From: an uncultured virus (IMG/VR IMGVR_UViG_2660238032_000003)
Taxonomy: Duplodnaviria > Heunggongvirae > Uroviricota > Caudoviricetes
Direction: 5' to 3' (one strand)
IMG/VR virus record: IMGVR_UViG_2660238032_000003
Length of the DNA: 64,000 bases
Positions 2,751 through 58,348 of this stretch are shown here, in pieces. The translations under genes were made by a program, and so were the position numbers. Under the pieces are notes generated by a model, which saw only the letters and a list, made by a program, of their open reading frames with translations, had not been told where the DNA came from and made no database searches. Numbering within the stretch: position 1 is the stretch's first letter; each line of letters opens with the position of its first letter.

Positions 2751-2753
2751 CTT

Positions 2754-11952: not shown

Positions 11953-11963
11953 TACAATACCTC

Positions 11964-13348: not shown

Positions 13349-13396
13349 AATATCACCCTAAATTTATATTACCATATTATTACATTAAAATCTATG

Positions 13397-14308: not shown

Positions 14309-14388
14309 TAATTATCACCATCTAATTCTATTAGCCATTTACTTTATATTAATTTCCAATAATACGAAAATTAAACACTTGCTTAAAT

Positions 14389-14424
14389 AAAAAAAGAACT
14401 ACTTAAATAAAAAAGTAGTTCTTT
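14389..14424. terminator. Terminator hairpin
   Basis: AAAGAACTACTT/AAGTAGTTCTTT inverted repeat with an A/T run. Confidence 0.7.
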
Positions 14425-14435
14425 ACAATTAAATT

Positions 14436-15512
14436 TTAATTACATTTAGAACATGGTCTTAAGCTCTTTGCTTTAGCATCTTCTAAAGACATTTCACTTG
14501 GAGATTTCATATTACTGCAATCCTTGCTTGAATGATAAACCTTTGAAGTTTTATTCGCTACCCAAACACTATTGCTTTTTGTCTTAGTCTCTGAAGTGCT
14601 ATTGTTAGTTGTATTTCCTGTATTAGTTCCACTTGCATTAACATTAAAATTTATATTATTTCCATCTGAACTAGATATTATAGTTCCACTTACATCTGTC
14701 CTTAATATATTAATATTTTTTGCATTTAGTTTATCAATTGTTTCTTGATGAGGATGACCATAATCATTTCCTTTACCACAAGAAACAATAGCATATCTTG
14801 GATTTACTTTGTCTAAAAATGCTTGAGAAGTTGAAGAATGACTTCCATGATGACCTAACTTAAGTACGTCTGCACTAATATCTAATTGCTTGGCTAATAT
14901 TTCGCCTTCACTTAATGCTTCTGCATCTCCTGTAAATAAGTAAGATGTATTACCAAATCTTAATTTACACACTATTGAATAGTTATTCATATCTTGATAG
15001 GTAGCACTATTAGGAGCTAAAAATTGTAATGTAGCATTACCTATAGTTAATGTATCACCTATAGTTGGTGCTGTAAGTTTTAAACCTTTATTTTGTAATG
15101 CCTTTATCATATTTTCAAAAGTCTTAGTCGTATGATTAACTTTAGGAGCATAAAATTCTCCAATTTCAAAATTATTAATTATACTTGTCATTCCTCCAAT
15201 GTGGTCTTCATGTGGATGTGTGGCAAGTACATAATCTAGTTTGCTTATTCCAATAGATTTTAAGTAGTTCAATGCTTTGTTATCATTACATCCTGCATCA
15301 ATTAAAATATTCTTTCCATCAACCTGTATAAGTTCGCTATCCCCTTGTCCTACATCAATATAGTGGACTTTCATATTTCCTACTGAGGTTTCTTGTGTTT
15401 TAGTAGTTTCAATATTAGTTTTGTTAATAGCATTAGCTTGTTTACATCCTAAAGTAAATGTTGATAACAATACTGCTAAAGATAAACTAAGTAGTTTTTT
15501 AGCATTTTTCAT
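14436..15512 (-). CDS. ComEC/Rec2-like metallo-beta-lactamase-fold lipoprotein
   Basis: Lipobox LGC; DVGQGD, THPHEDHIGG, FTGDAE, GHHGS, YGHP; C-terminal YH..C..CxxC domain. Confidence 0.9.
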   Translation of the reverse strand: MKNAKKLLSLSLAVLLSTFTLGCKQANAINKTNIETTKTQETSVGNMKVHYIDVGQGDSELIQVDGKNILIDAGCNDNKALNYLKSIGISKLDYVLATHPHEDHIGGMTSIINNFEIGEFYAPKVNHTTKTFENMIKALQNKGLKLTAPTIGDTLTIGNATLQFLAPNSATYQDMNNYSIVCKLRFGNTSYLFTGDAEALSEGEILAKQLDISADVLKLGHHGSHSSTSQAFLDKVNPRYAIVSCGKGNDYGHPHQETIDKLNAKNINILRTDVSGTIISSSDGNNINFNVNASGTNTGNTTNNSTSETKTKSNSVWVANKTSKVYHSSKDCSNMKSPSEMSLEDAKAKSLRPCSKCN

Positions 15513-15666
15513 TCATTCATCCCCTCTTAAATTATTTTTATATTTTAATTGTATATTATTACTAAATTTTGTCAATATTCTAAATAAGATATTAAAATTG
15601 CCCAATAAAATAGAGGTGTATAGATTTTTCTATATTACCTCTATTTTTATTATGTTTAACTATGTG

Positions 15667-16155
15667 TTACCAACACTTCTCACAAATTTTATGTTTTACT
15701 TTCGCATCATTAACTGTAGTTTTTATAGCTTTGTTTGGATTCATCTTGCCACAATTAGGTATCTTATGATATTTATCTCCTGTTGCTGATAAATAAGCGA
15801 TTTGACTATCTGTAACAAAATCTCCAGTAGATGAACTTCCAGTGTTTGTAGTCCAAACACCATTGTTGTTTAAATAATAATTTCCAACATAGCAATTCTG
15901 AGCCATTTGTCCATTAGACCAACAATAATACCAGTTACCATTGTCATTAATCCAGCCAGTTTTCATATAACCATTTGAATCAAAGTAATACCACTTTCCA
16001 TCTATTTGTTCCCAACCTACAGAATATGAACTTCCTTGTGTATACCACCATCCAGTATTATTTTGTTTCCATGCTGCATTAGCTTGTACAGGATTTAACA
16101 TTGCTAATCCACAAAATACAAGCAATGCTGAAAGTAGCTTTTTAAAGTTTTTCAT
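15667..16155 (-). CDS. Secreted choline/cell-wall-binding repeat protein
   Basis: Signal peptide (ANA/AW), GWEQIDGKWYYF-type repeats, C-terminal YH..C..CxxC domain. Confidence 0.85.
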   Translation of the reverse strand: MKNFKKLLSALLVFCGLAMLNPVQANAAWKQNNTGWWYTQGSSYSVGWEQIDGKWYYFDSNGYMKTGWINDNGNWYYCWSNGQMAQNCYVGNYYLNNNGVWTTNTGSSSTGDFVTDSQIAYLSATGDKYHKIPNCGKMNPNKAIKTTVNDAKVKHKICEKCW

Positions 16156-16288
16156 TTTGTTATCCCCCTATTTTTATATTTACGTGTATTATTTTACTAT
16201 TAATTGCAATTAAGTTCAATATAATTGTAATTAATTAACTATAAATGTTATAATATGTCTATAAGCAATTGAAATAGGGGATGAGAAA

Positions 16289-16960
16289 ATGAGTAAATCA
16301 ATAATAAAAATCAATGGAAAAATCGATAAAATACTTAAAACTAATAAAGATGGTTCTGCAGTAGTTTTATTTAAAAATGAAAATGAGGATATTTTTAATT
16401 TACAATCATCAATAATTATGGTCGAGATAACCAAAAGACAATGGCGAAATTTTAAAAACCTTCCCGATATATTAGATTTATATTTGAATATTTATGGAAA
16501 ATTTGAAATAAGAACATTAAAAGAAAATAAAACTTATATTTATGTGAAATCTATTGCTATAAAAAAAGTAGGCTTAAAAGAACAAAAACAGATATTAGAT
16601 CATGATGATAAAATAGATAAACACTATAAACAAGATGTTTATTTTCAACAAAGAGATTATGATAATATGTGGTTTAAAAGATTAGAAGAAATTGAATTTC
16701 AAGACGTTGATATAAACAACGTTAAATTAGTTGAAAAAACACATTTAAATTCTAGAATATCAATATTCAACATAAAAAATATGAGCAACTATAAGGATTT
16801 AACACCTATTGCGATAAGAAAAAATGAGGAGGGTACTTATGAACTTATTGCAGGATTAAAGACTTTTATAGTAGCAAAATTATTTTCTCGAAATGTTAAA
16901 GCGTATATAACTGATTTAGATAGAGAATCCTTTAAAGAAAAATATTCATTAACAATATAG
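16289..16960 (+). CDS. Hypothetical protein with a possible ParB/Srx-like C-terminal domain
   Basis: PIAIRKNEEGTYELIAGLKTFIVAK resembles the ParB-N PI.V....YEIIAG.RR motif but lacks the arginine patch. Confidence 0.5.
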   Translation: MSKSIIKINGKIDKILKTNKDGSAVVLFKNENEDIFNLQSSIIMVEITKRQWRNFKNLPDILDLYLNIYGKFEIRTLKENKTYIYVKSIAIKKVGLKEQKQILDHDDKIDKHYKQDVYFQQRDYDNMWFKRLEEIEFQDVDINNVKLVEKTHLNSRISIFNIKNMSNYKDLTPIAIRKNEEGTYELIAGLKTFIVAKLFSRNVKAYITDLDRESFKEKYSLTI

Positions 16961-17067
16961 ACAAGTTTTTTATTTAGATAATAAAATTAAAGCAGTAAGT
17001 ATTTCTTTACCTACTGCTTTTATTAATATAATTTTTAAAATAAAATTTAAGTTTTATATTATTGTTT

Positions 17068-17397
17068 TTAATCTCCCTCTGTATAAAGATATTTAGATGC
17101 CACATAACCAGTATTTCCATTGGAATCTGTTACTTTACTCCATTGATAACCATCAGCAGTTCCTGCATTCAAACTCTCAATGCCAACAGATTCATTATTA
17201 CTAAAATATTTAATACGATTTGAATTTACTGATTTAGATTCTCTAAATGCAACTCTAGTACCATCTATATGCCCCCAAAATCCTGTAGCTGGATTATTGT
17301 AAGAAGCATACGCTACTGTAGAAAATGTTGTTGGCATAATAAAAGTTGTACCTAAAATGGCTAAACTTAAGAATCCAAACAAAAATAATTTTTTCAT
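17068..17397 (-). CDS. Secreted SH3b-domain protein
   Basis: Signal peptide (AYA); VAFRES...WSKVTDSNGNTGYVASKYL; GAGGGAGGG RBS before the ATG at 17397. Confidence 0.75.
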   Translation of the reverse strand: MKKLFLFGFLSLAILGTTFIMPTTFSTVAYASYNNPATGFWGHIDGTRVAFRESKSVNSNRIKYFSNNESVGIESLNAGTADGYQWSKVTDSNGNTGYVASKYLYTEGD

Positions 17398-17733
17398 AAT
17401 ATCCCTCCCTCTTAACCTTTTATATATTTTAACATATTTTCTATAAAATTCAAATAAAAATATGTTCTTATTAATCAACTTGAATTATATTAATATTTTG
17501 AATTGTGCTACAAAATAAGGACAGTACATAGAACTTAATCTACATACTGCCCTTAAAGTAAATTTTATTTACAAATAATAACTCCATTTTTTAAGAATAC
17601 ACATAGATATATTATCTTTAAATAATTATTAATTTTAACTTTTTAACATATAATTACATATAATATTATAAATTATATTGATTATTTATTAGTTTATTCT
17701 TATAATTAAGTTAAAAGAGGAGGTGATTGTTAA

Positions 17734-17958
17734 ATGTATTTTTCTAATTTTATAAGTTTTCTATCACAGTTAGGTACATTTATGGTTATTTTTTCTCTTT
17801 TTTATTTTTTGTTTAAATTCATTTTTAATATAATATTAAAATATTTTATTAAAAATGATTATATTATGTTAAAAAAGATTTACATTAGTGATTGTTTAAG
17901 TATACTTAGTAGTTTGATTTTTATATTTAAGTTTATAACAATATATCCCTGTAAATAA
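17734..17958 (+). CDS. Small membrane protein
   Basis: GAGGAGGTG RBS; two hydrophobic helices. Confidence 0.55.
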   Translation: MYFSNFISFLSQLGTFMVIFSLFYFLFKFIFNIILKYFIKNDYIMLKKIYISDCLSILSSLIFIFKFITIYPCK

Positions 17959-17979
17959 GCAATGTACTATACTCATTGC

Positions 17980-19062
17980 TTATTTTTCTATATTTAGTTC
18001 ATTATCTAGTTTATTTTGTTTTTCCGGAACTTCTATTTCTAATTTTTCTTGATTTTCTTTAAAGTCTTTAACTAATTGTTTTAGTTCTTCATCATCTTCT
18101 TTTTCTTTCATAATCTTTTCATTTACTTCCATAACAGTTGATATTAATTTAGGTAAACCTTCACTTTCTATGTCTACTTTAGCTCCCAAAAATTCAAAAT
18201 TAAAATGTGATCCAAACAGTGCTGTTATTATTGTTCCACAAATTAAAATAGTGAACATTTTACTTTTTAATTGTAGTGGTCCTTTAGATTGTACATTAAC
18301 TTTTAATATAATATCATCCTTATTAAACTTCCACTCAGGAAATTTATTACAAATATAGTTCATAAGTTTATCATTATTATTTAAAAAACTTAACATATCT
18401 GAATATGGTATATTAGATTTTTTATTAATTCTATAGGTAAAATACCCTTCATCACCTTTTATATAAAATTGTGATAACATACGGTCTATGAATATATTAT
18501 ATTTATTTGCATCTGCTACTGCACTATGTGAATAAATAATATTTAATAAGTAGGGATCCCATTCACTTCTTTTAAATGTTTTTAACCATTTGACCTTTCT
18601 ACGCTTTTTTATTATTATTTTTTTTTCTTTATCATCTGATTCATCTAAATAATCAAGTAAACTTTCAAAATCTGTTTCTGATTTATCCTCTTCATATATT
18701 TCTATATCGTCATCTAAAATTTCTCCTATTGCAATCCATCTAGATTTTTCATTAGGAATTAATACAATATCTCCTTTTTTTATATCATAAACAAACTTTT
18801 TAATCTGATTCATTATATATCCTGGTTTATCAACATCCTTATAGCATTTTTTTATTTTTTCTTTCCACTGATCTTCTGTCGCACTTTTTATAAAGTTCAA
18901 ATCACTAATTTCATCCCATTCAATTCCTACAAAATTTTCATTTGTAAAATCATCATAATAATTTCCACCTTGAGTTCTTATAAACCAATAATTACGATTT
19001 TTAGGGAATACATTAATTCCAATTTTATTTAAAAGACTTTCTTCTTTAATGCTAAGCTCCAT
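17980..19062 (-). CDS. Hypothetical protein with a PUA/EVE-like N-terminal domain and a C-terminal TM helix
   Basis: YWFIRTQGG..FVGIEW...IKKGDIVLIP..IAIGEI..RRKVKW, then a hydrophobic helix and a coiled tail. Confidence 0.55.
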   Translation of the reverse strand: MELSIKEESLLNKIGINVFPKNRNYWFIRTQGGNYYDDFTNENFVGIEWDEISDLNFIKSATEDQWKEKIKKCYKDVDKPGYIMNQIKKFVYDIKKGDIVLIPNEKSRWIAIGEILDDDIEIYEEDKSETDFESLLDYLDESDDKEKKIIIKKRRKVKWLKTFKRSEWDPYLLNIIYSHSAVADANKYNIFIDRMLSQFYIKGDEGYFTYRINKKSNIPYSDMLSFLNNNDKLMNYICNKFPEWKFNKDDIILKVNVQSKGPLQLKSKMFTILICGTIITALFGSHFNFEFLGAKVDIESEGLPKLISTVMEVNEKIMKEKEDDEELKQLVKDFKENQEKLEIEVPEKQNKLDNELNIEK

Positions 19063-19270: not shown

Positions 19271-20062
19271 TTAATTATTGCCTGTATAATCAGCATTTAA
19301 AAACATAGCTGCTTCCTTTGTCCTTCTTCTGTAAAGTCCTTCTATTCTTTTACCTCCACCATTACTCCAAGCAACAAAATTAGCTGTAATTGTGTTTTTA
19401 TCTCTTATTCCAGCAACGATATTTTTATATAGTGTAGAACCTAACAATCCTGTTGTGCCACAATTGTATGAAAATGAAACCAAAGCATCAAATTCATGCT
19501 GTTTTAATGCAATACCTTTAAACTCTAAATCTTTTTTTATTACTGGAGCATACTTTTTATTTATCCAATCTTTTAATAACTCTGTTGCCTTTTCTTCTGT
19601 AATCGTATCTGGTAAATCTTCTATTTCCTTTCCTGTAAGTCCATAACCTAATGTTTTAACTCCTACGCAATCTATATATGGAGTAGCAAAATAGCCTTCC
19701 CATGATTTAATAAAATCTATACATATAGTACTAACAAGAGTATCTTCTATCCATGCACCACTAGTATTGAACTTATATTCTTTACCATCTATTGTATAAG
19801 TACCATCACGATACATTTCTCCTTTATAACCATTGCTTACAGGATTTAAATAAAACCACTTACCACTATAGGGACTTTTTAACCAACCAGTAGCCATAGA
19901 ACCATCATTTTTTAAGTAGTACCATCTTTCATCTTTATCCTGTATCCAACTTGTTTGCATTATGCCTTCATCATTTAAATAGTACCATTTTCCATTATTT
20001 TCATACCATCCTTTTATTATTTTTCCATTTTCACCTTGTACACACCATTTCCAATTAGACAT
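19271..20062 (-). CDS. Endolysin: N-terminal choline-binding repeats + GH24 lysozyme
   Basis: GKWYYL repeats; IKSWEG...PYIDCVGVKTLGYG; FDALVSFSYNCG; GLYRRRTKEA. Confidence 0.92.
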   Translation of the reverse strand: MSNWKWCVQGENGKIIKGWYENNGKWYYLNDEGIMQTSWIQDKDERWYYLKNDGSMATGWLKSPYSGKWFYLNPVSNGYKGEMYRDGTYTIDGKEYKFNTSGAWIEDTLVSTICIDFIKSWEGYFATPYIDCVGVKTLGYGLTGKEIEDLPDTITEEKATELLKDWINKKYAPVIKKDLEFKGIALKQHEFDALVSFSYNCGTTGLLGSTLYKNIVAGIRDKNTITANFVAWSNGGGKRIEGLYRRRTKEAAMFLNADYTGNN

Positions 20063-36543: not shown

Positions 36544-37959
36544 CTATTTTAAATTACCTGTACTGAAAATCTTCTTTATGACATTTATATATTCAGCATC
36601 CCACTTCCAGAAGAATTCATCTGATTGAGCGTTCTTTTGTAATTCTTCATCTGTTTCTATATTAAATTTAGCTATAATGCCCAATTTTTGATAAGTTTCA
36701 AAGAATGTTTTTAATCCACACAATGTTACTGTATGTCCTGTTTCATCATTTGAAATTTTACCTATATAGTCCTTTCCAGCACCTGCTGTTTGCTTGTTTA
36801 CTGTATTGATAAATCTAATTGCTCTAATATTACCTAATGCTTCCTCTTTTTCATTCTTATAGTTTTTATAAGTATTTACATCATCTACAATAACTACTTC
36901 ATTATCTATTACATCAAATACTATAGTTCCAGATTCTAATGCACTTTCTATTTCAGTTCTTGATAAACGAGGTTCTACACTATCAAATATGGTAGTTTCA
37001 TTACAGACAGATTCTTTTAAATTCTTTCCTAGTGCTAAAGCAGCAACATATACAGCTACTTCTGCTGCTGTGTAAGTAATTCCATCATAAGTAGTTGATT
37101 TTAAGTAAACATTGTGCATTAAGTAATCATTGTACTCTTTTGATTTTGAATTAGCCTGACTTAAACTTTCTGAATTACTTGCTAAAAATGCTAATATATC
37201 AAGTCCTTCTTTTTTGCATTCATTGATCCATGTTTTAACACTTGTGTGTAATCCTACATCTGTAACACCATCTAATGTAAACCCATCTATTCCATGACTT
37301 TCAAATGCTTTCATTGCTTTTAAATATTCAGTATTAGTTATATTAGATGCACCATCATTACCACCTGTAAATTTATCATTTACCATATCCGCTAATGTTC
37401 CTGTTGCATTTTCAACTTTTGAAGCAACAATATAATCGCTTAGAGCAGATTTGTTTATTTTATCTACTATTTCATCAATACTTCCAGTTAAATCACTAAC
37501 TTCAACTAATTGAGTAGTATTTTCATATAAAATAATATCTTTAGCAGACTCATTAATTATGTTTGTTCTTATGGTTACATTAAATGCTCTTGAGCTTGGA
37601 TATATTGTTTGCAACTTAATTACATTAGTTGGAGAACTTTCAGTATTTTTAAGAATTAATTCCCCTGGTTTAGCAGCACTATCAACAAGTCTATAAAGTA
37701 ATAATTCTTTCGGTTTTCCTAATAAAGCTAATTTTCCTAGCTTATATGCTGTAAAATTTGCATTGTTACCAAAAGCATTTTTTAAGTGTCTTTCTTGAGA
37801 AACAGAAACAACTTTATTTACTGGACCCCAATCACTTTTTACTGGCATAGATAAAACACCTTGAATGTTATTAGCTGATTCTTCTGCTACTATTTGCATA
37901 CGGTGATAAAACCCTGGAATTTTAGGTTTATCTTTTTCACTCCATGTACCTTTTGCCAT
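36544..37959 (-). CDS. Tail sheath protein (XkdK-like)
   Basis: PGFY, SDWGP, FTGGNDG, IVDDVNT, IR.IR. Confidence 0.9.
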   Translation of the reverse strand: MAKGTWSEKDKPKIPGFYHRMQIVAEESANNIQGVLSMPVKSDWGPVNKVVSVSQERHLKNAFGNNANFTAYKLGKLALLGKPKELLLYRLVDSAAKPGELILKNTESSPTNVIKLQTIYPSSRAFNVTIRTNIINESAKDIILYENTTQLVEVSDLTGSIDEIVDKINKSALSDYIVASKVENATGTLADMVNDKFTGGNDGASNITNTEYLKAMKAFESHGIDGFTLDGVTDVGLHTSVKTWINECKKEGLDILAFLASNSESLSQANSKSKEYNDYLMHNVYLKSTTYDGITYTAAEVAVYVAALALGKNLKESVCNETTIFDSVEPRLSRTEIESALESGTIVFDVIDNEVVIVDDVNTYKNYKNEKEEALGNIRAIRFINTVNKQTAGAGKDYIGKISNDETGHTVTLCGLKTFFETYQKLGIIAKFNIETDEELQKNAQSDEFFWKWDAEYINVIKKIFSTGNLK

Positions 37960-40388: not shown

Positions 40389-41444
40389 TTAACCTACTGT
40401 TGCGAAGAATACCTCATCTGCTCGATCAAAGCTTACTATAGGCATTACAGATACTTTTGTATCAACTGTAACTGGGTCTGCTTTTACCATAGTAGTAATA
40501 GCAGTTCCTGTACCTACCATAGTAGTATCAAGTTTTCCACTTCCATGAGTTTTGTCAAATTCTTCAGGTGTGACACCATAAACTGTATTTCCTAATGTAG
40601 TCCCACTCATAAGAGTTACTTTATTACTTTCATAATATTGAACTGGTGTAGCCTCTTCATATGGGTAATAAGTCGAATCATCTAAGAATACAATTGTTAA
40701 TCCCATAACTTCCTTAGCAAATTGTAAGTAATCTTTTTGAGATAATATTCTGTTTTGATTCATAACATTTCCATTTAAATGATTTTTTATCACTGTGTTT
40801 ATTAAGAAAGTATTATCAAATGTTGATTCTGTAAGCATTAATGTTGTTGGTTTTGGATAATTTTCATCAGTTAATACTTTTTGCCACTTCTTTACATCTC
40901 CAACAATATCAGCTGCAGGATTAGTCCATTTATCAGTTGATGTTAATACAACTTTATGATTTGAAGGCACTCCATAATCAACTACCACATCACCATCATT
41001 AGCATCTGATGAATAGTTAATTACACCATTCTGTAATACTTGTGCTGCCATAGCTTTTGGCATTATTTCAGAACCTTTTACAAGGTTAACTTGTCCATCA
41101 AAAATTTGATCTGAGATTGTTTTAACTAAATTTTCATTGTTACATCCTATAGCAGAAATTAGCTCTCTTCTTGTTGTTTCATCAATTCCAGTTGATTCCT
41201 TAAAAAATGGAATTTCTGTACTTTGTACTGTAATTTTTGCAGATAAGCTTCTCATTTTAGCAGCTACATCAAATGTACTTTGTCTTAATGCAATTGGTTT
41301 CTTTTTAGCACCTTTTGCATTTTCAAGTTTTGTTCCTAACACCTTTTTGGGTGGGAATAATGATTTTTCAAGTGTTGGTTCCATTGGTAATTCTTTCATA
41401 TAAAGTGCTATATTTTGTGAATTTATAAAATCTTTTAACTCCAT
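40389..41444 (-). CDS. Major capsid protein (Phage_cap_E-like)
   Basis: LFP, PFFKES, VDYGVP, G.T.YG.TPEE, DPV; GGAGG RBS before the ATG at 41444. Confidence 0.88.
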   Translation of the reverse strand: MELKDFINSQNIALYMKELPMEPTLEKSLFPPKKVLGTKLENAKGAKKKPIALRQSTFDVAAKMRSLSAKITVQSTEIPFFKESTGIDETTRRELISAIGCNNENLVKTISDQIFDGQVNLVKGSEIMPKAMAAQVLQNGVINYSSDANDGDVVVDYGVPSNHKVVLTSTDKWTNPAADIVGDVKKWQKVLTDENYPKPTTLMLTESTFDNTFLINTVIKNHLNGNVMNQNRILSQKDYLQFAKEVMGLTIVFLDDSTYYPYEEATPVQYYESNKVTLMSGTTLGNTVYGVTPEEFDKTHGSGKLDTTMVGTGTAITTMVKADPVTVDTKVSVMPIVSFDRADEVFFATVG

Positions 41445-41460
41445 ATTATTTATCCTCCTT

Positions 41461-41871
41461 CTATCTACCAAATATAATCATTGGCATTGCTGCTTTTTCT
41501 ATTGCCCCATTAGTCTTATCTAATTTAACAGCACTCTCATAAACTGCACCATGAACCATTACTGATGCAATTTCAGTAGCATTATCTGCTACTCCATCTG
41601 ATGATACGGAGTTTTTGAAATTTATATCTTTATATAATATTCCATGTGCTGTTGTTGAAGCTGGTGTTTCTCCACTAGCTGATGTTGTTACAGCAACTTT
41701 CCCATCAACTGATATTAATATTCCAGCTTCTAATACTTCATCTGAATTTAGGTATGCTTTTACATCTGCCTTTTTAATTTTTATAGGCAATGTAATAAAG
41801 TGATCTCCTGCAATTAATCTAAGCTTTTTATGTGATGCTCCGATTGTATATGAACTTTGATGCATATACAC
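41461..41871 (-). CDS. Putative head decoration protein
   Basis: AG.L, GILY.D, VMVHGAV; between the scaffold and capsid genes. Confidence 0.65.
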   Translation of the reverse strand: MYMHQSSYTIGASHKKLRLIAGDHFITLPIKIKKADVKAYLNSDEVLEAGILISVDGKVAVTTSASGETPASTTAHGILYKDINFKNSVSSDGVADNATEIASVMVHGAVYESAVKLDKTNGAIEKAAMPMIIFGR

Positions 41872-41893
41872 ATTCCTCCTTTAAATTTAATAA

Positions 41894-42520
41894 TTAATTA
41901 GCTGCAAATGAACTAATATCTTTTACTTGTTTCAATGACTCTGCTTTTTCTTTTCCTAGCTGTTGTGCAAAGTTAGTTGGATGAGTAGGTTCTTGTCCGC
42001 CTGCACTTCCACCAGTACCGAATGAACTTGTACCTTTTATTTCTTTTTCAAATAAAAAATCGTGACTTGTTTTAAGTGGTTCAATTTGTTCTTTAAGACC
42101 TATAACCGAATCACCATCTACTTTCAATTTATCTTTGTCTATTAGAGCCATGATTAACTTTTTGTCCTTAACATTGAATGAACCTAAAGACTTTTCTAAA
42201 GCATTGCTAAAATTAATATCAGATAACTGTTTATCATAAGTTTCTTTTTGAATTTTATTATCTAACTCTAACTTTTCAACCTTTTCCTTAAGCCCATCAA
42301 CATCCTTGTATTCTTCTTTGAGTTTAGATATTTGAGTATCTCTTTCTCCTACTTGCTTTTTATATTCCTTAGCTTCGCCATTTACTTGGTCAAATCTAAT
42401 CTTTGGGATGAAGTTACCTGAACCTATATCTTCAAAATCTTTTTTCCCTAATTCTTTTCTTTTATCTTCTGAAAGAGCATTAAATGCTTCTTCTCCGATA
42501 ATGTCTTTAATATGTGCCAT
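41894..42520 (-). CDS. Capsid scaffolding protein (Phage_GP20-like)
   Basis: FIPKIRFDQVN, coiled coil, GL.EQI..LK...FLF. Confidence 0.85.
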   Translation of the reverse strand: MAHIKDIIGEEAFNALSEDKRKELGKKDFEDIGSGNFIPKIRFDQVNGEAKEYKKQVGERDTQISKLKEEYKDVDGLKEKVEKLELDNKIQKETYDKQLSDINFSNALEKSLGSFNVKDKKLIMALIDKDKLKVDGDSVIGLKEQIEPLKTSHDFLFEKEIKGTSSFGTGGSAGGQEPTHPTNFAQQLGKEKAESLKQVKDISSFAAN

Positions 42521-42537
42521 GTTTTAAGTCCTCCTTA

Positions 42538-42630
42538 GTCTCTAATTACAGTTTTTAACGTGCTACTGAACCACGTTAGAGTATTATGCTTAATTATTCT
42601 TTAGTGCCTGCAATTAAGCTAAAAAGGCGA
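42538..42630 (-). ncRNA. Tandem-pseudoknot leader upstream of the scaffold gene (GP20-type cis-regulatory RNA candidate)
   Basis: GCCU/AGGC crossed by GCUUAAUU/AAUUAAGC, then AACGUG/CACGUU crossed by CAGU/ACUG, ending at the RBS. Confidence 0.55.
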
Positions 42631-42659
42631 AAAAATAAAGCCTTATTTTTAAGACTTAA

Positions 42660-43034
42660 CTACTTAGTATTTGTACCTAATACATTTCTTTCAATTCTGT
42701 CCTCTACCCTTCTATTCATCCACATTAAAGCTTCTTCAACATGTGTTAAAGCACAAGCATTTTCTCTACTTGAGAATGGTCCAGCTTGAAAACTCTTTAA
42801 TCTATCTCTTACTATTTCTAATAAGTCAGAATCTATTACACCGTGTTGTGATTTCTCTTCTTTTCTAGCACCTTTTTGGAACTTGATAGTTTCATAAACA
42901 TCATAATTCCCTTGACTATCCATAGAATTACTTTTAATTACATATTCATGATATGCACCTCCTGGACCTTCGCTTCCTATTCTTTCAACAGTGTTTAATT
43001 TCTCTCTTTTTTGAATTGTACTTAATTCTTTCAT
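42660..43034 (-). CDS. tad1: Tad1 (Thoeris anti-defence 1) signal-sponge protein
   Basis: 124 aa; [60 protein letters not shown]. Matches my recollection of C. botulinum prophage Tad1. Confidence 0.92.
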
Positions 43035-43095
43035 CTTTCAATTCCTCCTAAAATAAAAATAAGCCTATAACGTTAGACTTAAACGAGATATTAGA

Positions 43096-43497
43096 TCACC
43101 TCTTTAAACTTTCTATGCTTGATTTTATTTTTTCGGCAACTTTTTCTCCTAATTCATCAATATTAACACCATCAGTTATTGAAATATCTCCTATTTTAAT
43201 TGTACTAGGTAGATTATCTCTAATTACTTGGTGTAAGCCATATGATACCTTATCAACTATCGTTTCTTCATCTTCTGTAAAATCAACTTTATATTCTTTT
43301 ACTATTGCATGTACTACTTCATGAAGAAATGTTTGTTCTTGTTTTTGCTTGCTTTGAATGTTTTTTGCTACTTTTATTTTTAATTTATCGCAATCTATTA
43401 TTCCTAAGCACTGTGATGCATTTAAAACTAATGTTTCATCTGTAAGTTCAACATCATAATCAAAGCTTCCTACTCTTATTTTGTTTGGTATCTCCAT
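43096..43497 (-). CDS. Small HExxH zinc-metallopeptidase-like protein
   Basis: QTFLHEVVHAI...EETIVD zincin-type motif. Confidence 0.7.
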   Translation of the reverse strand: MEIPNKIRVGSFDYDVELTDETLVLNASQCLGIIDCDKLKIKVAKNIQSKQKQEQTFLHEVVHAIVKEYKVDFTEDEETIVDKVSYGLHQVIRDNLPSTIKIGDISITDGVNIDELGEKVAEKIKSSIESLKR

Positions 43498-43799
43498 TCA
43501 TATTCTCCTTTCATTAATTTACTCATAGCCTGTTTATGTTCATTAATTATCATTTCAAGTTCTATTGCAACTCTAGGCCTTCTAGTAATTACAACTTTCC
43601 CACTTGATAGCCATGCTTTTAAATTATTAATTTTAATCTTAAGCTTTCTAGTCTTACAATTATCCAAGCAAATAATATACTTAGCGCCACACTTAGGACA
43701 CTCAAAGTAAGTTTCACCTATCATAGCACCTAAATATTGTTCTTTCACTTGTGGTTCAAATTCATATTTACAATTTGCATTCTCACATTTAACATTCAT
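43476..43799 (-). CDS. Zinc-ribbon hypothetical protein
   Basis: CENANC and CPKC pairs; GGAGGG RBS before MNVKC. Confidence 0.65.
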   Translation of the reverse strand: MNVKCENANCKYEFEPQVKEQYLGAMIGETYFECPKCGAKYIICLDNCKTRKLKIKINNLKAWLSSGKVVITRRPRVAIELEMIINEHKQAMSKLMKGEYEWRYQTK

Positions 43800-43824
43800 C
43801 AATAACCCTCCAATTTTAAGCATG

Positions 43825-43930
43825 AAAAAAGCACCTGAATTACTTCAAGCGCTTAATCATATTTCTTACTATATTTAGTTTATCATATATTTTAAGTAAA
43901 AATTCTCAAGTTTTTCTCATTTTCTTATCA
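43825..43930 (-). promoter_or_regulatory. Late-promoter motif copy 2 followed by a terminator-like hairpin
   Basis: TGATAAGAAAATGAGAAAAA (43911-43930), TTGAGA, TATGAT at 43882-43887, hairpin AAGCGCTTGAA..TTCAGGTGCTTTTTT. Confidence 0.6.
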
Positions 43931-43935
43931 CAATT

Positions 43936-44880
43936 TCACTTATTTTTTTCATACCATTTGTCTAATTTAGAATTACTTTCACCATTGCTCCATGCCTTTA
44001 TTTCTTGCATAGCTGACTTAATGTCAGTATTGACTTCATATGTTATGCATAAGCACTGTGGGTGTCCCACAGGCATTTTATTAGCAGGAAATACACCAGT
44101 TCCTAATCCATAGTTGTCTTGTCCAGCATAATCATCACATACATCTGTTTTTCCATGCATTCTTATTCCATGACTAGGTGATAACTCCCACTTCATGCCT
44201 ATATTAAAAGGATTATTCATAGCTTGTTGAATTTGAGTTTCTCTAAAACTATGAGTAATACTTGTCCTAGCTAATCTTGAAGCTTGATACGATACATTTT
44301 TGCTAAATCCTACTTCATCATTTTTCAATTCTAGTTTTTTTAATGGATTAACATACTTATTTACTTGCTGAGCTAGTTCTTTAGCATTAGCACCTTTTAA
44401 TACATTGACTTTAATTAAAGTATCAATATCCTTTGAACTTTTTCTTGTTATATTCCATAATCTTTTGTCTAAGGTTTTTCCATCTTTATAATAAGCACCT
44501 TGAATAAGCTTACTTACAGTTTTTCTTGATGTATTTAAAACCGAATTATTAAACATAGTTGATAATACTGAATCATCTGTAATTTGATGATAATAAAAAC
44601 TCTCAACTGCACTTGCAATTTGAGAGCTAGTTTCTATATTATCCTTTACCATTGCACTTAATTGAGAGTTTAACTGATTAATATTAACTTGTACTATTTC
44701 ATTTAACTTTCTTAAATAAACATCTTGAGAAGAGGTTCTGCAAGTAGCTATATCATAGCTTAATTGATTTGCTAATTGTTTGTATAAATTTAATAATTCT
44801 TTTTCTTGAGTTTTATTTAACTTTAAAAACTTCTTTCTAGCTTTTAAAACAGCTTCTTGGTAACTAGTCATATTAAACAC
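43936..44880 (-). CDS. Head morphogenesis / minor capsid protein (SPP1 gp7/MuF-like)
   Basis: RLARTS, W.LS.SH, D.CD, HPQCLC. Confidence 0.8.
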   Translation of the reverse strand: MFNMTSYQEAVLKARKKFLKLNKTQEKELLNLYKQLANQLSYDIATCRTSSQDVYLRKLNEIVQVNINQLNSQLSAMVKDNIETSSQIASAVESFYYHQITDDSVLSTMFNNSVLNTSRKTVSKLIQGAYYKDGKTLDKRLWNITRKSSKDIDTLIKVNVLKGANAKELAQQVNKYVNPLKKLELKNDEVGFSKNVSYQASRLARTSITHSFRETQIQQAMNNPFNIGMKWELSPSHGIRMHGKTDVCDDYAGQDNYGLGTGVFPANKMPVGHPQCLCITYEVNTDIKSAMQEIKAWSNGESNSKLDKWYEKNK

Positions 44881-46378
44881 CAGTACTACTATTATTGTTT
44901 ATATCATCTAAATTTTCGTCTAACCCTTTATTAAATTGGTCTGTTTCAGTATTAGTTATTTGAACTTTTTCATCTAATATTTCATCAAAAGCTTTTTCAG
45001 CATCCTCTTCATCCGAAAATTCTTTAAGATATGACTTTCTACTTCTAACATCAGCTTGTACTTCTGACATAGCTAAATTTTTCTTTTCATCAATATCGTT
45101 AGGAATAGGATAATTTTGTTTAATAATCTTAGTATATTTAATTTGTAACCAAGCTTTATTGAATAATCCTGGATAACATACTGAACCTACTTCTATAATA
45201 AAATTAATTAAAGACAACAAAGGTTTTTCCCAATCATTGAATTTTTCTTCCATTCGAGCAATTAAGTCATTATATAAATAAATCATAGCCTTTGCTGATG
45301 GTATATTATTTAAATCACTTATCTTAGGCATGTCTAGTGTTTCTTTCATATCGCTATCTGCTCTATCTAGATAAGAATTCATAGCTTCACTATTTCCTAT
45401 ATTATATTCTTGCTTTTGAATAGTTGCTTGTTTTCCTTGTGCTAATGCTTCATCTGATGTTCTTATAGCATGTAACGCTCCTGGTGCAACATTCAATTTA
45501 TTTACATCCTCTTCTTTTCCATCAATAACGCTTTCAGATCCAAACATTTGAAATCTCAATGCATCTGCAAAATCTGAATTTCTCCTGTTATACTGATTTT
45601 GAGCATCTCTTAAGTCAGTAACATCACTTTCACCAAAAGTATTATTAAGCTCTCCACCATTACGTATTAGCCAACATGGGATAGTAGAAAATCCTGTGTC
45701 ATACTCATTTTTTTCTACTAAATCTGTATTCTTATAAGTTTCTTTTCTATACCAAGCTTGAAGTGCTTTAGTATTTTCATCAACTTTATAGTAATAAGTA
45801 TGAAGATAGTATATTTTATCTTTATCGTCTTCTCTATACACATTCATTTCATCTTCTTCAAAGAAGATAGCTTTTAATAATTTCCCATTCTTCTCTTTAT
45901 AAAAGAAGTTCTCTATGCTTTCATATTTAATTACTACTGGTTGTCCTGGATTAGCTTCTACTCTAAGCAATGCTCTTTTCTTTATAGTAGTTTCTAAAAA
46001 GGCTTTTCTAGTATTATTCCAGAAGCTATTATTTTCAAATACATCTTCTATAAACTTTCTTAAATCTTCACATTTTTCTTTATCTTTTAAATCATCAGCT
46101 TTAAATATCATTGTTGGTTTCTTACCAAACATCCATCTAGCTTGTTTCTTAAGAAGAGGTTTAACCTTATTTCTTATATCTTGTGTAGGCTTATAATCAA
46201 CCTTATCATCTATTGGCCAGTTTTGACCATATAATGCTGGATTTTGTTTTGCTTTATCTAAATCTATTGATTTACCTTTGTAATAATAATAGTCAGTAAA
46301 GACACGTTTTCTTTCTGCTATTTCATTATCAGGTAGCTTAAGTAATGTATCTCTTATACTTTTTGCCTGTTGTTTCAT
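44873..46378 (-). CDS. Portal protein (SPP1 gp6-like)
   Basis: 501 aa directly after the terminase; YYKG, GESD, SAKAM. Confidence 0.85.
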   Translation of the reverse strand: MKQQAKSIRDTLLKLPDNEIAERKRVFTDYYYYKGKSIDLDKAKQNPALYGQNWPIDDKVDYKPTQDIRNKVKPLLKKQARWMFGKKPTMIFKADDLKDKEKCEDLRKFIEDVFENNSFWNNTRKAFLETTIKKRALLRVEANPGQPVVIKYESIENFFYKEKNGKLLKAIFFEEDEMNVYREDDKDKIYYLHTYYYKVDENTKALQAWYRKETYKNTDLVEKNEYDTGFSTIPCWLIRNGGELNNTFGESDVTDLRDAQNQYNRRNSDFADALRFQMFGSESVIDGKEEDVNKLNVAPGALHAIRTSDEALAQGKQATIQKQEYNIGNSEAMNSYLDRADSDMKETLDMPKISDLNNIPSAKAMIYLYNDLIARMEEKFNDWEKPLLSLINFIIEVGSVCYPGLFNKAWLQIKYTKIIKQNYPIPNDIDEKKNLAMSEVQADVRSRKSYLKEFSDEEDAEKAFDEILDEKVQITNTETDQFNKGLDENLDDINNNSSTGV

Positions 46379-47730
46379 TAAAATATTGTTCCTCCTTTTC
46401 TTCCATATGGATCACTAGCATTGTTTTTAACAACACCTTTTCCTTTTTTGTATACTTCATTGTCATAATTATGTTCTTTAAGATTAGATACTTCATATCC
46501 ATCTAATGCATACCAGATTGCACTAAATGTATGAGGATCTATATTGAATTCATCCTTAATAATTTCTCCATCTTTATCAACTGCATATGTTAAATCCTCT
46601 AATTCATCAATTACATCTGTGCATTCTTCAGAACATATAATTTTTTTAAATCTTTTTACTTTCTTTGTATTTTGTAATCTACTTCCTTTAAACTTCTTAG
46701 CACCTAACATATTAAATCCTTCTTGCCTATAGAAAGTAATAGTTTTAGGTTCTGCTGAATCAGCTTTAATTCTTTCCTGAGTTTTTTTAAATTCTTCAAG
46801 TTCTATAGCGGTTTTATCATCTGTCATTTGATTTTTATAATACTGCCAATATATATATAGAATTTTACTATCATCATCTATTGCTAATCTAACTACAGCA
46901 TTGTATGAAGTTTCAAATCCAAAGTCCATTCCAACCCTATACAAAAGCTTTTTAGTATTATGCATCATTTCCAATACTTTATAATGTGGTTTCTTTTCAA
47001 ATTGAGGTAATACCTTTTTACCATTAGTTCCAAATTGCCCTTTTCTTGCAACTCTCCATAGATCTTTATCATGTGTTTTTAAATCATCAAGCTGCAGTAT
47101 ATAAGATTTAGGCAAAAAATAATTATCATCTGCTAATGAATGATGATAATATGTGTTATTTTTAATTACTATTCTCTTTTTATATAAATCTTTATCATCC
47201 AATACAAACAATTTCTTTTTTTTATCTATAAAGAAATACTTATAGCACCAATTACTTTTGGATACTGGATTAGTAGTTAATATCATGTGTAACTTTAAAG
47301 TTGGGTGTCTTAATCTACCTAATAGCTCCTTAAATCCTTCATATTTAACCTCGGAACATTCCTCAATCCATACAATAGAAACATTATTAATAGACTTTAA
47401 TTTTGCTGGTTTATCCATACCTTTAAATATAATCTTACTTCCATTAGGAAATCTTATTTGCATAGGAGATGTTTTACATTGTATAGTATCATCAAGTTCC
47501 ATTTCAGTTATTATTTCTTCAAGTAATGAATAGCATGAATCCCTCATAGTGTCATAAACTTCTCTAACTACTAATGCTGTTCTTTTCTCTTCTAATAACT
47601 TAAGTATTAATTTAAAGGCTGTATTATATGATTTACTTGAACCATAACCACCAACTAAAAAGTAAAACTTATAATCCCAATTAAATATATAATCTTCAAA
47701 GTGTGGATTAATTTCTCTTTCAATGTCCAT
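46378..47730 (-). CDS. PBSX-family terminase large subunit
   Basis: [29 protein letters not shown]. Confidence 0.95.
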
Positions 47731-47732: not shown

Positions 47733-48665
47733 TTAATCACGCTCTTTCCTTTTGATTACTATATTTATTTGTTCATCTTTATCTTTTCCTTTTATCTTTT
47801 CAGTTTCAGCTTGTAACTTAGTATTTTGGTATCTCATGTTTTCAATTTGTAACTTAGTCTTTTCTTCATCACTTAATAGATTGCAATGCTTAGTTAAAAA
47901 ATCTAAAGCCTTCATCTTATCTGCTAATTTAAACTTAATACCATCTTTTCCCTCTGCAACTTCATTAATTAATGTTGTATCTACTAAAGAGCTCTCTTTT
48001 AAATCTAAATAATTGTATTCTTTAATTTTTTGTTCTCCTGTATTAGGATCTATAACTGGTACATCTCTTCCTTCTTTATCTTTGGTCCATACTGCTCTGT
48101 ATTTCTTACCAAATTTAACATAGTCACCTATATCTGCAAAGGCTATATCTATATACTTTTGTATTACACTTCTTTTAAGTGCTTCTTTATTAAACTGTAT
48201 TGCTGTTAATGAATCTATCTGTTCTTTTATCTTAGTGTTTCTTAGCAGATTACTTCCATTAGCCATTGCAGTCTCATAAGTACACTTATATACCTTTTGA
48301 TATGCCTTAGTAGCATTAAAGCACTTAGCATATATAACACAAAAGAGCCTTTGCTTATCATTAAGTTCAGTATTTTCTAATACTTCTTTAATTTCATCTG
48401 CAATAGGCTCTTTTATAATTTTTTTATTTTGTTTTATAGTTACTTTTTTATTAGTAACGTTACTTTTACTTTGTACCTTTTTATTTGGTAACGCTCCTTT
48501 TGACGTTCCTAATTCATTATCCCATTTATCTTGTGATTTCCACTTTCTCACCTGCGAGTCTTTAATATCTAATTGTGCTGCTATATCAACTAATTTCATA
48601 GTACCTTTTGAGTTAATATATAATTCCTTTGCCTTATTTCTTAATGGACTTCTTTCTCTAGCCAT
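47733..48665 (-). CDS. Terminase small subunit
   Basis: N-terminal HTH (RKWKSQDKW), [22 protein letters not shown]. Confidence 0.9.
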
Positions 48666-55712: not shown

Positions 55713-56720
55713 TTAAACTACTAATCTTCTATATTCATTTTTCAAATTTTCTTGTGAAAGTTGTGCATAAATCTGAGTTGTAGTTGGAGTAGTATGTCCT
55801 AATATACCTTGTACTCCTTCAATCCTCATTCCACTATTTAATAATCTAGTCGCCTGAGTCCTTCTAAACTTATGCGCATGAACCCTTTCTGTTACATTCG
55901 TCCTATTCTTTATCTTTTTAATAATTAACTGTAGAGCTCTAGTTCCTATTACTTGATATGGTGCTTTTTGTGATATAAACAAATAGTCTGATTCTCCTTT
56001 TCTTGTATTTATATACTGTTCAATATGCAATTTAGCTTTAGTTGAAAAATAAACTATTCTTTCTTTACTTCCTTTTCCTGTTACTTTTATGCTCTGCTCG
56101 GACCAGTTTATATCCTCTAACTTAATGTTATCTATTTCTGATATTCTACAAGCTGTACTATCTAATAATTCAAACAATGCTTTTTCTCGTTCTGTTTTGC
56201 ATCCTTCTCTTAATTTTTCAAGATTCTCTGCTTTGTAAGGTTGTTGAATTATTCTTGGCACCTTTGTTTGTTTTAACTTATAAGCTGGATTGTTAAAAAT
56301 ATATTCCTCTGATTGCAACCATCCGAAAAAGTTCTTTAAATAAGTGATATATCCATTAACAGTACTTGCTTTCTTGCCTTTACCCAATAGAGCTAAGAAC
56401 ATTCTTAAATCCATTGTGTTTATAGTAGAACATGGTTTAGTAAAATACTGATCTAACTTATTAAGAAACAGTCTGTAATTATATAATGTCTTATTGCTTA
56501 AACCTTCTAATTTCTTACAAGCAAGATATAGCTGAGCCTTTTCTTCTATATCGCTGCAAACTAAATCTGTACACTTACTTTGTACTTCGTAGTTATACAA
56601 AGTCTCATCTATAGTTCTCTTAACTTCTAGTTGCATATCTAATTTCTGTTCTAAAAAAGGTAATAACAATGTTAATTTTCCCACTAATTTAATGCTTACT
56701 TCTTCGTTTAGGTTGCTCAT
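55713..56720 (-). CDS. XerC/D-like tyrosine recombinase of the early region
   Basis: CRISE, GKGSKER, HKFRRT, ILGH, TTQIY. Confidence 0.92.
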   Translation of the reverse strand: MSNLNEEVSIKLVGKLTLLLPFLEQKLDMQLEVKRTIDETLYNYEVQSKCTDLVCSDIEEKAQLYLACKKLEGLSNKTLYNYRLFLNKLDQYFTKPCSTINTMDLRMFLALLGKGKKASTVNGYITYLKNFFGWLQSEEYIFNNPAYKLKQTKVPRIIQQPYKAENLEKLREGCKTEREKALFELLDSTACRISEIDNIKLEDINWSEQSIKVTGKGSKERIVYFSTKAKLHIEQYINTRKGESDYLFISQKAPYQVIGTRALQLIIKKIKNRTNVTERVHAHKFRRTQATRLLNSGMRIEGVQGILGHTTPTTTQIYAQLSQENLKNEYRRLVV

Positions 56721-57369: not shown

Positions 57370-58191
57370 CTACAATGCACATTCACAAGGTAGAAAACTC
57401 ATTTGACCATCTATTTCTGGTAATGATTTATTTACCATTGACCAAAATCTTTGACTTCCTATTTTTTCTGTTGGAACTATACCTTTACACCTCATAGATG
57501 CAAATTTAGGTTCTAACTCTTCTAAAAATAAATCTTTTAAAATACTGTAACCAATAGCCTTTTCGGTTTCTTTGGCTTCTTCCCACAACTTAGGATATAA
57601 ACAATAAGTTAAATACCATTGTTGCTTACCTGCCTTTAAGCAGCCTTTACAATTAGCATGTCTAAATAGTTCATATACATTAGGTCTTTTAATTCCTAAT
57701 TCCTCTGTAGATTGTATTGTTCTATTCCAAAAAGCCAATGGAAAATCTGTTTTATATCCTTGGTTTATCATAACTCCAATTCTTCTTTGGATTCTGTTAG
57801 TTTCTTTCTTATCAAATCCATATATTAAAGTTATATCTTCTCTTACTTCTCCTGGAGCTACTGGGTAATTATCTTTTAACCACTTATGAAATGGCTTAGT
57901 TTTTAAGTTATAAGTACAAAGTACTGGACCATTACCAAACTTAAATCCTCCAAGCTCTTTACATACCCTTAATGGTGTTTTATTTTCCCAACCTTCCATA
58001 TTTGCATAAGTTATATCTATTCCTAAATATTTTGCAACTTCATTTTTAAATCTTTTTATGTCATTGTCCTCTACTTCCTCACTAATATTGTGATTAAGTA
58101 GTATTACATTTTCTTTGCCAACTTTTCTAACACATTCTATAGCACATAAGGCTGAAGAATGTCCTCCTGAAAAACATACAATATATTTCAT
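57370..58191 (-). CDS. PAPS-reductase-family / PP-loop protein with Fe-S-type cysteines
   Basis: CFSGGHSS PP-loop, LCTYNLK, HANCKGCLKAG, C-terminal PCEC. Confidence 0.75.
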   Translation of the reverse strand: MKYIVCFSGGHSSALCAIECVRKVGKENVILLNHNISEEVEDNDIKRFKNEVAKYLGIDITYANMEGWENKTPLRVCKELGGFKFGNGPVLCTYNLKTKPFHKWLKDNYPVAPGEVREDITLIYGFDKKETNRIQRRIGVMINQGYKTDFPLAFWNRTIQSTEELGIKRPNVYELFRHANCKGCLKAGKQQWYLTYCLYPKLWEEAKETEKAIGYSILKDLFLEELEPKFASMRCKGIVPTEKIGSQRFWSMVNKSLPEIDGQMSFLPCECAL

Positions 58192-58348
58192 AACTACCAC
58201 TAACATAGTTAATTCCTTGCTAGTGGAAGCAATTTAGCACTCCTTGGGGAGCATCCGTATTACTTTACATATAAACGTCAATAAACACTTATTATATAAC
58301 CTGGTCTACCAGGATTTAGTTATGTTTTACTCCTTTCTTATTAAGCAT
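58192..58348 (-). ncRNA. Structured leader with a 10-codon uORF upstream of the PAPS-reductase-like gene
   Basis: Hairpins CCUGG-UAGA-CCAGG, GCUCC-CCAA-GGAGU and UUGCU/AGCAA, enclosed by AACAUA/UAUGUU. Confidence 0.45.

Follow-up and report, generated by a model that had tools for sequence, protein, structure and literature searches.

A Clostridium prophage gene with a product identical to CbTad1 occupies an exchangeable cargo slot in the head module

CbTad1, the Tad1 of a Clostridium botulinum prophage, is a sponge protein that has been co-crystallized with glycocyclic ADP-ribose (gcADPR), appearing as a dimer in the 2022 structure and as a hexamer in the 2023 work (Li et al., 10.1101/2023.11.15.567273). 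Its contacts to gcADPR, as given in the Leavitt preprint, are F82, R109, N92, R57, R113, G120, F87, H29, G55, R78 and N122. Li et al. assign a cyclic-trinucleotide site to R90/T97 and guanine contacts to Q8, L13 and L119, and report affinities of ∼14 nM for cyclic triadenylate (cA3), 12.5 nM for cyclic AMP-AMP-GMP (cAAG), 31 nM for 2',3'-cyclic GMP-AMP (cGAMP) and 24.5 nM for 3',2'-cGAMP, together with rescue of phage in vivo against a cA3-type cyclic-oligonucleotide-based antiphage signalling system (CBASS). Synthetic genes were used in the CbTad1 papers, and the accessible parts of these papers do not describe the position of the gene in its prophage. Here, we describe that position for tad1, a gene at 42660..43034 on the minus strand of a 64,000-nucleotide stretch of DNA (the window; IMG/VR record IMGVR_UViG_2660238032_000003, an uncultured member of the Caudoviricetes). 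We regard it as close to certain that the locus is best explained jointly by a Clostridium prophage tad1 equal to that of CbTad1, by the published sponge mechanism, and by an exchangeable cargo slot in which the gene resides.

The window protein does not differ from CbTad1 of PDB entries 7UAV, 7UAW, 8SMD and 8KBE-8KBH, whereas CmTad1 (8KBB), SBSphiJ7 Tad1 and phiCPE_00011 of phage vB_CpeS-1181 belong to the same family at lower identity; CmTad1 also differs from CbTad1 in its cyclic-dinucleotide spectrum (10.1101/2023.11.15.567273). Acb2 shares the PF24729 hairpin domain with the window Tad1 and forms a hexamer that binds two cyclic trinucleotides similarly to CbTad1 (10.1101/2023.11.15.567273), but is another protein family outside the hairpin, and no Acb2 chain is among the PDB sequence matches of the tad1 product at E <= 1. 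As for the genomic setting, the nearest described case is the 'anti-signaling hotspot' of N4-like phages, which holds the interchangeable sponges Tad2, Tad3, Acb4 and Sequestin as well as unknown genes, and which has been used for discovery through guilt by position (10.64898/2026.06.04.730250); sponge fusions have been used for discovery in the Sequestin preprint of the Sorek laboratory (10.1101/2025.07.12.664507). Both loci are compact, lie between conserved boundary genes, and carry different sponges in related phages. The N4-like hotspot, however, is found in lytic phages of Pseudomonadota, bounded by the genes for primase and virion RNA polymerase, whereas the slot in the window belongs to the head module of temperate Clostridium phages and is characterized by swaps that are exact to the open reading frame (ORF) and by a shared leader; the accessible portion of the hotspot preprint describes no such leader (10.64898/2026.06.04.730250). 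A limited literature search, mostly at the level of titles and the opening lines of abstracts, returned no sponge slot in Clostridium prophage head modules and no shared leader of this kind. The gene itself is thus a rediscovery of a textbook counter-defence protein and adds very little that is new. The value lies in its genomic setting, in which tad1 is optional cargo of a precisely bounded head-module slot that holds an Acb4-family sponge in a sister module. Only the slot and its leader are new, and they are offered as leads to new counter-defence genes and not as a finding about tad1.

Identity of the tad1 product

The ORF listing of the window gives tad1 as a minus-strand frame of 124 amino acids with an ATG start (43032-43034), and an AGGAGG ribosome-binding site (RBS) can be read in the DNA at 43044..43049 (minus strand), 9 nt upstream of the start codon, in agreement with the original prediction of a 124-residue gene with its own RBS. 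All motifs quoted in that prediction are found in the translation, the pattern DRIER.V.G being present as DRIERNVLG. The prediction, which had been made from the letters alone, also named the product a Tad1 anti-Thoeris/anti-CBASS sponge, judged it to be identical or nearly identical to the C. botulinum prophage Tad1 of the structural studies, and proposed comparison with Tad1 structures and with the Acb2/Tad1 profile. Both comparisons bear this out. In a phmmer search of all PDB chains the product aligns to CbTad1 without gaps at an E-value of 7.9e-80, with 124/124 residues identical, a match far beyond chance. The identical chains are 8kbg_D (124 residues), 7uav_A (also 7uaw and 8smd), 8kbh_D and 8kbe_A, of which 8kbg_D, 8kbe_A and the 8kbh chains are named 'Thoeris anti-defense 1' in the PDB. 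Residues 71-110 match the Pfam family PF24729 (Acb2_Tad1_hairpin) with 34.9 bits, above the gathering cut-off of 27, and in PHROGs the product falls into phrog_2428, a family that carries no name (2e-32). A more distant PDB match is CmTad1 (8kbb_A, E 4.5e-13). As judged from sequence, the ORF product is therefore the crystallized CbTad1 itself and more than a Tad1 homologue, and the gene is one already known through the published protein.

The residues on which the published sites depend were checked by position. The gcADPR contacts H29, G55, R57, R78, F82, F87, N92, R109, R113, G120 and N122 are all present in the translation, as are the guanine contacts Q8, L13 and L119 and the residues R90 and T97 of the cyclic-trinucleotide site and hexamer interface. 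Because the two proteins do not differ at any of the 124 positions, the sites published for gcADPR, cGAMP and cyclic trinucleotides apply unchanged, and identity with the solved chains predicts that the product is a homo-oligomer with pockets at its interfaces. By the published mechanism, carried over by this identity, Tad1 dimers would assemble into a hexamer in which six dimer-interface pockets would enclose 1''-2'/1''-3' gcADPR or 2',3'-/3',2'-cGAMP, and two trimer-interface pockets would hold cyclic trinucleotides (cA3, cAAG). The signals would be sequestered and not degraded, such that ThsA of Thoeris and the CBASS effectors would stay off and the phage cycle could be completed.

Relatives of Tad1 are found in similar places elsewhere. 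In the phage collection 77 records hold a Tad1 match, 18 of them covering >= 80% of the protein. The nearest relative is that of Clostridium phage vB_CpeS-1181 (66.9% identity, labelled 'ABC transporter ATPase'), which lies in the same type of slot, between a 'head protein' gene and a scaffold-sized gene that precedes the major capsid gene. Species-representative genomes gave 68 loci with a Tad1 relative, the best at 81% identity (uncultured Clostridium). For these loci the neighbours were taken as the nearest same-strand ORFs of >= 120 residues, with no more than two accepted on either side from among the four closest, and were scanned against PHROGs (100 downstream ORFs at 55 loci and 105 upstream ORFs at 61 loci), the window proteins being searched by tblastn as well. 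A scaffold or major capsid gene lies just downstream of the Tad1 relative at 18/68 loci, and 15/68 have, in addition, a minor head or portal gene upstream; 11/68 adjoin endolysin/holin genes, 8/68 stand just before terminase/portal genes, and the rest are without an informative neighbour. By these counts Tad1 stands where modules of late regions meet, and the slot of the window is its most frequent location. As a side observation, PDB chain 8y6v_I ('gp184', 230 residues) matches residues 16-121 of the tad1 product at E 6.7e-6; gp184 and the members of phrog_22140 and phrog_23843 are proteins of 200-230 residues with a Tad1-like C-terminal part, and are possibly fused forms of Tad1.

Cargo exchange and the shared leader

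The slot is flanked on its left by the gene for a head morphogenesis/minor head protein (43936-44880, minus strand; phrog_1657, 1.5e-98) and on its right by that for the head scaffolding protein (41894-42520, minus strand; phrog_194, 9.5e-43; PF06810, 3.4e-38). The original prediction had placed tad1 between the minor-capsid and scaffold genes, which is true in outline. As the third member of a cassette of small genes, however, tad1 does not adjoin the minor head gene: a zinc-ribbon-like gene (43476-43823, minus strand) and an HExxH gene (43096-43497, minus strand) separate the two. To compare this arrangement with its relatives we used a sister set of 33 IMG/VR contigs (L-numbers below denote contigs and loci) that possess a related head module with 65-100% identity to the scaffold protein query. 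By tblastn, the minor head, scaffold, 136-residue and capsid genes are kept in 33/33 contigs, whereas tad1 occurs in 1/33, namely L071, which is the same record as G001 (100% identity). The zinc-ribbon gene is present in 26/33 modules and is hence a near-core gene of the slot, and the HExxH gene in 6/33 (7/33 with a profile, one of them weak). The distance from minor head to scaffold gene ranges from 167 to 3664 bp over the set, and the ORFs in between form 26 protein groups, among which Pfam recognizes AntA and Rha-type regulators, zinc ribbons and the HExxH protein, with many left without a match.

The borders of the exchanged segment are sharp. L073 aligns by blastn at 86.6% from 43881 as far as 43034, where the tad1 ATG begins, and the alignment is taken up again at 42659, a single base past the stop codon; between these breakpoints an ORF of 132 residues replaces tad1. 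The breakpoints of L072 are at 43042 and 42656, with a cargo of 144 residues that is of the same family as the L073 protein, and those of L092 are at 43019 and 42658, such that both contigs break within 8-16 nt of L073. L088 matches both flanks, with an overlap of 11 bp between the upstream and the downstream match, and resembles an unoccupied site that has one hairpin. The window, L003 and L071 have Tad1 itself at the slot; in L092 its place is taken by an Acb4-family gene at identical breakpoints (to within the few nucleotides given). The position of tad1 is thus an exchangeable cargo slot, with variable content between conserved boundary genes.

The L092 cargo is a protein of 148 residues that matches PF13876 (Phage_gp49_66) with 89.8 bits, the family to which Acb4 belongs (Chang et al., 10.1101/2024.12.30.630793). 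A profile built from 35 relatives matches 'anti-CBASS 4 (Acb4)', PDB 9E4W, at E 1.6e-4. For the AlphaFold model (mean predicted local distance difference test score, pLDDT, of 92.8) the ten best Foldseek matches are all 9E4W chains, with E-values from 2.8e-3, a probability of 1.00 and a template-modelling (TM) score of 0.64 on the target, none reaching E 0.001. A second, unrelated sponge family is therefore found at the very same position. The cargos of L072 (144 residues), L073 (132 residues) and L084 (175 residues) have no PDB sequence match at E <= 0.1 and no Pfam family, and a search of 5.8 billion clusters gave no more than 3 relatives for the L073 protein. Assignment of the L073 protein as tail-tube-like was rejected, as its look-alikes in the Atlas (146-159 shared features) are below the trusted level.

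Upstream of the exchanged ORF lies a leader of ∼60 nt that spans the stop codon of the upstream gene, a hairpin, a U-run, AGGAGG and the tad1 start codon. The hairpin (43060..43081, minus strand; 8 pairs, loop of 6) with its U-run at 43050-43059 makes up a weak element of terminator type that separates tad1 from the HExxH gene. The leader has a conserved 26-nt 3' part, AGGCTTATTTTTATTTTAGGAGGAAT (43041..43066, minus strand), which comprises the 3' arm of the hairpin, the U-run and the Shine-Dalgarno sequence. The 79 nt before tad1 are 85-100% conserved before the Tad1 genes of L003, L004, L005, L007, L014, L015 and L024, while the proteins encoded behind these leaders are only 66-81% identical, and are also conserved before the non-Tad1 cargos of L072, L073 and L092. 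Directly after the tad1 stop codon there is a second hairpin (42630..42657, minus strand; 8 pairs, loop of 4, followed by a U-run), which resembles the upstream hairpin in sequence by our own reading, by the folds and by the overlap of the L088 flanks; in a repeat search the two came up only as an inverted pair of 16 nt (88%) and not as a direct repeat. For the 139 nt that separate tad1 from the scaffold gene (42521-42659) the folding energy is -32.7 kcal/mol (z -3.42), a value equalled by 0/200 shuffles. This fold also includes a long-range stem over the RBS region of the scaffold gene.

The exact 26-nt part occurs at 9 IMG/VR loci, where it precedes Tad1 at four, PF13876/Acb4-family genes at three, and Tad2 and a PF15891 gene at one each. 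The four Tad1 loci include the G001 record; three have PF24729 scores of 34.9-35.5 bits, and the Tad1 of L109 scores 20.7 bits, below the cut-off, yet is 70% identical to CbTad1. The Tad2 assignment rests on PF11195 (85.1 bits) and on PDB Tad2 8V3E (E 2.8e-15). A relaxed pattern gave 13 IMG/VR loci, at which the cargos are Tad1 (5, including a form of 191 residues), PF13876 (4), Tad2 (1), PF15891 (1) and two unknowns of 132 and 63 residues. In metagenomes the relaxed pattern matched 24 loci, and by our reading the leader is homologous in 12 of them. Behind these stand two Acb4-like genes (one cut), one Tad1, four ORFs of 57 residues, one of 63, two of 89 (one cut), one of 56 and one cut ORF.

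From these observations it is conceivable, and we put it forward tentatively as the less probable outcome, that the ∼60-nt leader and the trailing hairpin mark a portable sponge-cassette site in Clostridium-type prophages, in which ORFs (Tad1, the Acb4 family, Tad2) are exchanged at their start and stop codons, the leader is a shared regulatory or recombination element, and the unknown cargos behind it are new counter-defence proteins (the 132/144-residue family, the 138-residue PF15891 protein, and the proteins of 57, 63 and 89 residues). The narrower reading for this locus belongs to the explanation that we favour: tad1 probably closes a cassette of three accessory genes set between the minor head and scaffold genes of the late, co-oriented head operon, and the conserved flanks, namely the leader with its hairpin, U-run and strong RBS and the trailing hairpin, would permit whole ORFs to be swapped by recombination, so that sister prophages would come to carry other sponge genes or unknown genes at the tad1 position. 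Several results weigh against this account of the locus. The other 12/24 metagenome matches are unrelated hairpin-plus-RBS sites before unrelated genes, and the short pattern alone is thus not specific. The upstream hairpin, with a minimum free energy of -9.2 kcal/mol (z -0.60), is no more stable than its shuffles; covariation leaves 81.1% of cells paired versus 78.9% after shuffling, with 69/500 shuffles as high; and RNAalifold predicts no consensus pair over 19 leaders. One pair is found as AU/UA at 8:5, and from the folding models the hairpin structure is plausible. In Rfam no family was matched at E <= 1 in 42300-44100.

The cargos behind the leader include several that may be of use in discovery. 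None of the 132/144-, 57-, 63- and 89-residue proteins and the PF15891 protein matches a Pfam sponge family or a PDB sequence. The PF15891 cargo (L113:304-720, minus strand, on the same contig as L104) is a protein of 138 residues that is nucleoside-2-deoxyribosyltransferase-like (39.3 bits, cut-off 30). PDB sequences yield no match to it below E 0.15, and it may be a counter-defence protein that binds nucleotides. Its identification as Sequestin was rejected because Sequestin belongs to PF21825 (10.1101/2025.07.12.664507). The small ORFs begin 6 nt past the leader pattern in L137, L139, L141 and L146 (57 residues), in L122 and L138 (63 residues) and in L126 (89 residues), are without a Pfam family, and recur on several metagenome contigs. 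In L115 (619-1194, minus strand) the leader is followed by an ORF of 191 residues with a 67-residue N-terminal extension and a full Tad1 (residues 68-191, 72% identical, PF24729 34.2 bits), which is either a fused form or the result of a lost stop between two genes. In L123 and L125 (∼330-1194, minus strand) an Acb4-family gene behind the leader is directly followed by a Tad1 gene (71% identity), an arrangement of tandem sponges. The same short leader therefore precedes Tad2 and further unknown small genes in addition to Tad1, and, should the pattern hold more widely, it would offer an inexpensive way of searching sequences of anaerobe phages for new inhibitors of nucleotide-based immunity, and would also exemplify how temperate phages exchange cassettes exactly at the borders of an ORF.

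Expression and function of tad1

As regards timing, we lean slightly towards transcription of tad1 with the late genes, by read-through of weak hairpins. Among 24 listed sequencing runs, none shared half of the sequence words of this stretch, the best DNA run reaching 0.30 and the single RNA run 0.05. The original prediction proposed that placement under a late promoter would fit protection at the stage at which structural proteins trigger TIR/CBASS sensors. Its premise, the triggering of Thoeris by capsid proteins, has been published for staphylococcal and streptococcal systems and not, in the accessible part of the source, for this host (PMC12578639). A less probable but serious alternative is that the same protein is made at another time, with tad1 an autonomously expressed moron that is active early in infection or from the resident prophage. 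Its expression would be driven from a promoter-like site at 43882..43909 (minus strand; TTGAGA-16-TATGAT, 10 of 12 positions, which is weak evidence) or from an unrecognized promoter, with the flanking hairpins insulating it from the late operon. In keeping with this, a 112-nt gap after the minor head gene separates the cassette from that gene and contains first the promoter-like site and then a terminator-like hairpin with a U-run (43829..43854, minus strand; 11 pairs, 4 of them G-C), the stem of which is kept in the centroid structure and the 136-nt spacer of which folds with z -1.94; terminator-like elements are, moreover, present on both sides of tad1. Against the moron, promoter-like sites are barely enriched (24 found versus 15.9 +/- 3.9 in shuffles), which puts such matches near chance level. 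The hairpin, moreover, is downstream of the promoter-like site and would stand directly in the path of any transcript begun at that site. The genes from terminase to tail are all co-oriented and tightly packed, and the 15/68 relative loci with Tad1 between minor head/portal and scaffold/capsid genes likewise favour transcription with the late genes over an autonomous moron.

It is very improbable that tad1 is an intact but inert passenger in a host lineage with no Thoeris- or CBASS-type signalling to counter. The gene is indeed dispensable for this phage type, as its presence in one of the 33 sister modules illustrates, but the reading frame is undamaged, a consensus RBS precedes it, and the exact sequence recurs on 17 contigs, and CD-NTases (cGAS/DncV-like nucleotidyltransferases) for cA3/cAAG and 3',2'-cGAMP are reported in the genus Clostridium (10.1101/2023.11.15.567273). 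That other sponge families hold the same position in sisters argues for selection on sponge function.

The reading of the product as an ABC transporter ATPase, a label carried by PDB 7UAV, phage record MW478292 and NCBI cluster members, can be set aside with practically no reservation, as the 124-residue protein has no match to an ABC ATPase family at E <= 1 in Pfam and the solved structures, as described in the sources, reveal a beta-sheet and two-helix sponge with bound gcADPR and cyclic nucleotides, by which the ATPase reading is refuted. The label is a mistaken annotation that has spread. The exact CbTad1 sequence is on 17 contigs in a collection of 15 billion proteins, and members of its 90% cluster are named 'ABC transporter ATPase [Clostridium botulinum]' and 'Acb2/Tad1 domain-containing protein [unclassified Clostridium]'. 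The expectation in the original prediction that automated annotation would probably call the gene hypothetical has to be amended, the usual label being a misnomer. Relatives of Tad1 in large Bacillus phages (e.g. OK499983, MG602477 and KX495186) have been labelled 'structural protein' by their depositors.

Prophage setting and neighbouring genes

From ∼20 kb to 64 kb every gene of the window is on the minus strand, and the G+C content of the window is 23-32%. The order of late genes, assigned by PHROGs and Pfam, is small terminase (47733-48665), large terminase (46378-47730), SPP1-type portal (44873-46378), minor head protein, the cassette with tad1, scaffold, a 136-residue head protein, and major capsid (40389-41471), all on the minus strand, followed further along by neck, sheath (36544-37959), tube, tape measure, baseplate and lysozyme (19271-20062) genes. 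The placement of tad1 in a prophage head module, as originally predicted, is consistent with this order, in which terminase, portal, head, sheath, tube and baseplate genes surround it. Replication and recombination functions are represented by a replisome organiser, a single-stranded DNA-binding protein, RecU and a tyrosine integrase (55713-56720), and host genes are found at 29-7188 (mutS, the spore photoproduct lyase gene splB, and panD/C/B). By gene content this is apparently a complete myovirus-type prophage in the chromosome. Cluster members of a neighbour gene are named from C. botulinum and C. cagae, and the phage collection contains no near-identical match to the DNA of 41800-45000.

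The first gene of the cassette, which matches phrog_1315 (1.2e-17), is listed with 115 residues and has 107 from the ATG at 43799, the likely true start, which stands behind GGAGGG; its zinc-ribbon-like product has no PDB match below E 0.11. The second, the upstream neighbour of tad1, encodes the HExxH protein of 133 residues (phrog_1233), in which H59, E60, H63, E78, Q90 and D94 are invariant across 36 sequences. DUF4344 is matched with 22.1 bits, below the cut-off, and the best folds for the model (pLDDT 85.6) are IrrE/PprI (E 0.085), selecase and Wss1, all weak, with no Foldseek match at E <= 0.001, no PDB sequence match below E 0.39 and no PADLOC hit. From the conserved residues and the model, the protein looks like a small metallopeptidase of the accessory cassette. 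An obligate link between tad1 and the HExxH gene was considered and rejected, given their respective counts in the sister modules (one and six by tblastn); among the 68 relative loci, the HExxH gene adjoins a Tad1 relative only in L003 (upstream) and L023 (downstream).

The region 8514-19062, which lies between the lysis gene and those of the host, contains a protein of 774 residues with a hit to the defence model mad8 (5.5e-12), one of 360 residues with a hit to PDC-S02 (8.1e-19), and a protein of 358 residues with a metallo-beta-lactamase (MBL) fold (LmuA, 6.8e-22; MBL associated with defence-associated reverse transcriptases, DRT, 2.2e-21), as well as a ParM/actin-like gene and a GIY-YIG gene. 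On these matches the region may be defence cargo at the end of the prophage. In the early region, a protein of 278 residues (57370-58206, minus strand) gives a weak PADLOC hit to SspD (7.9e-9).

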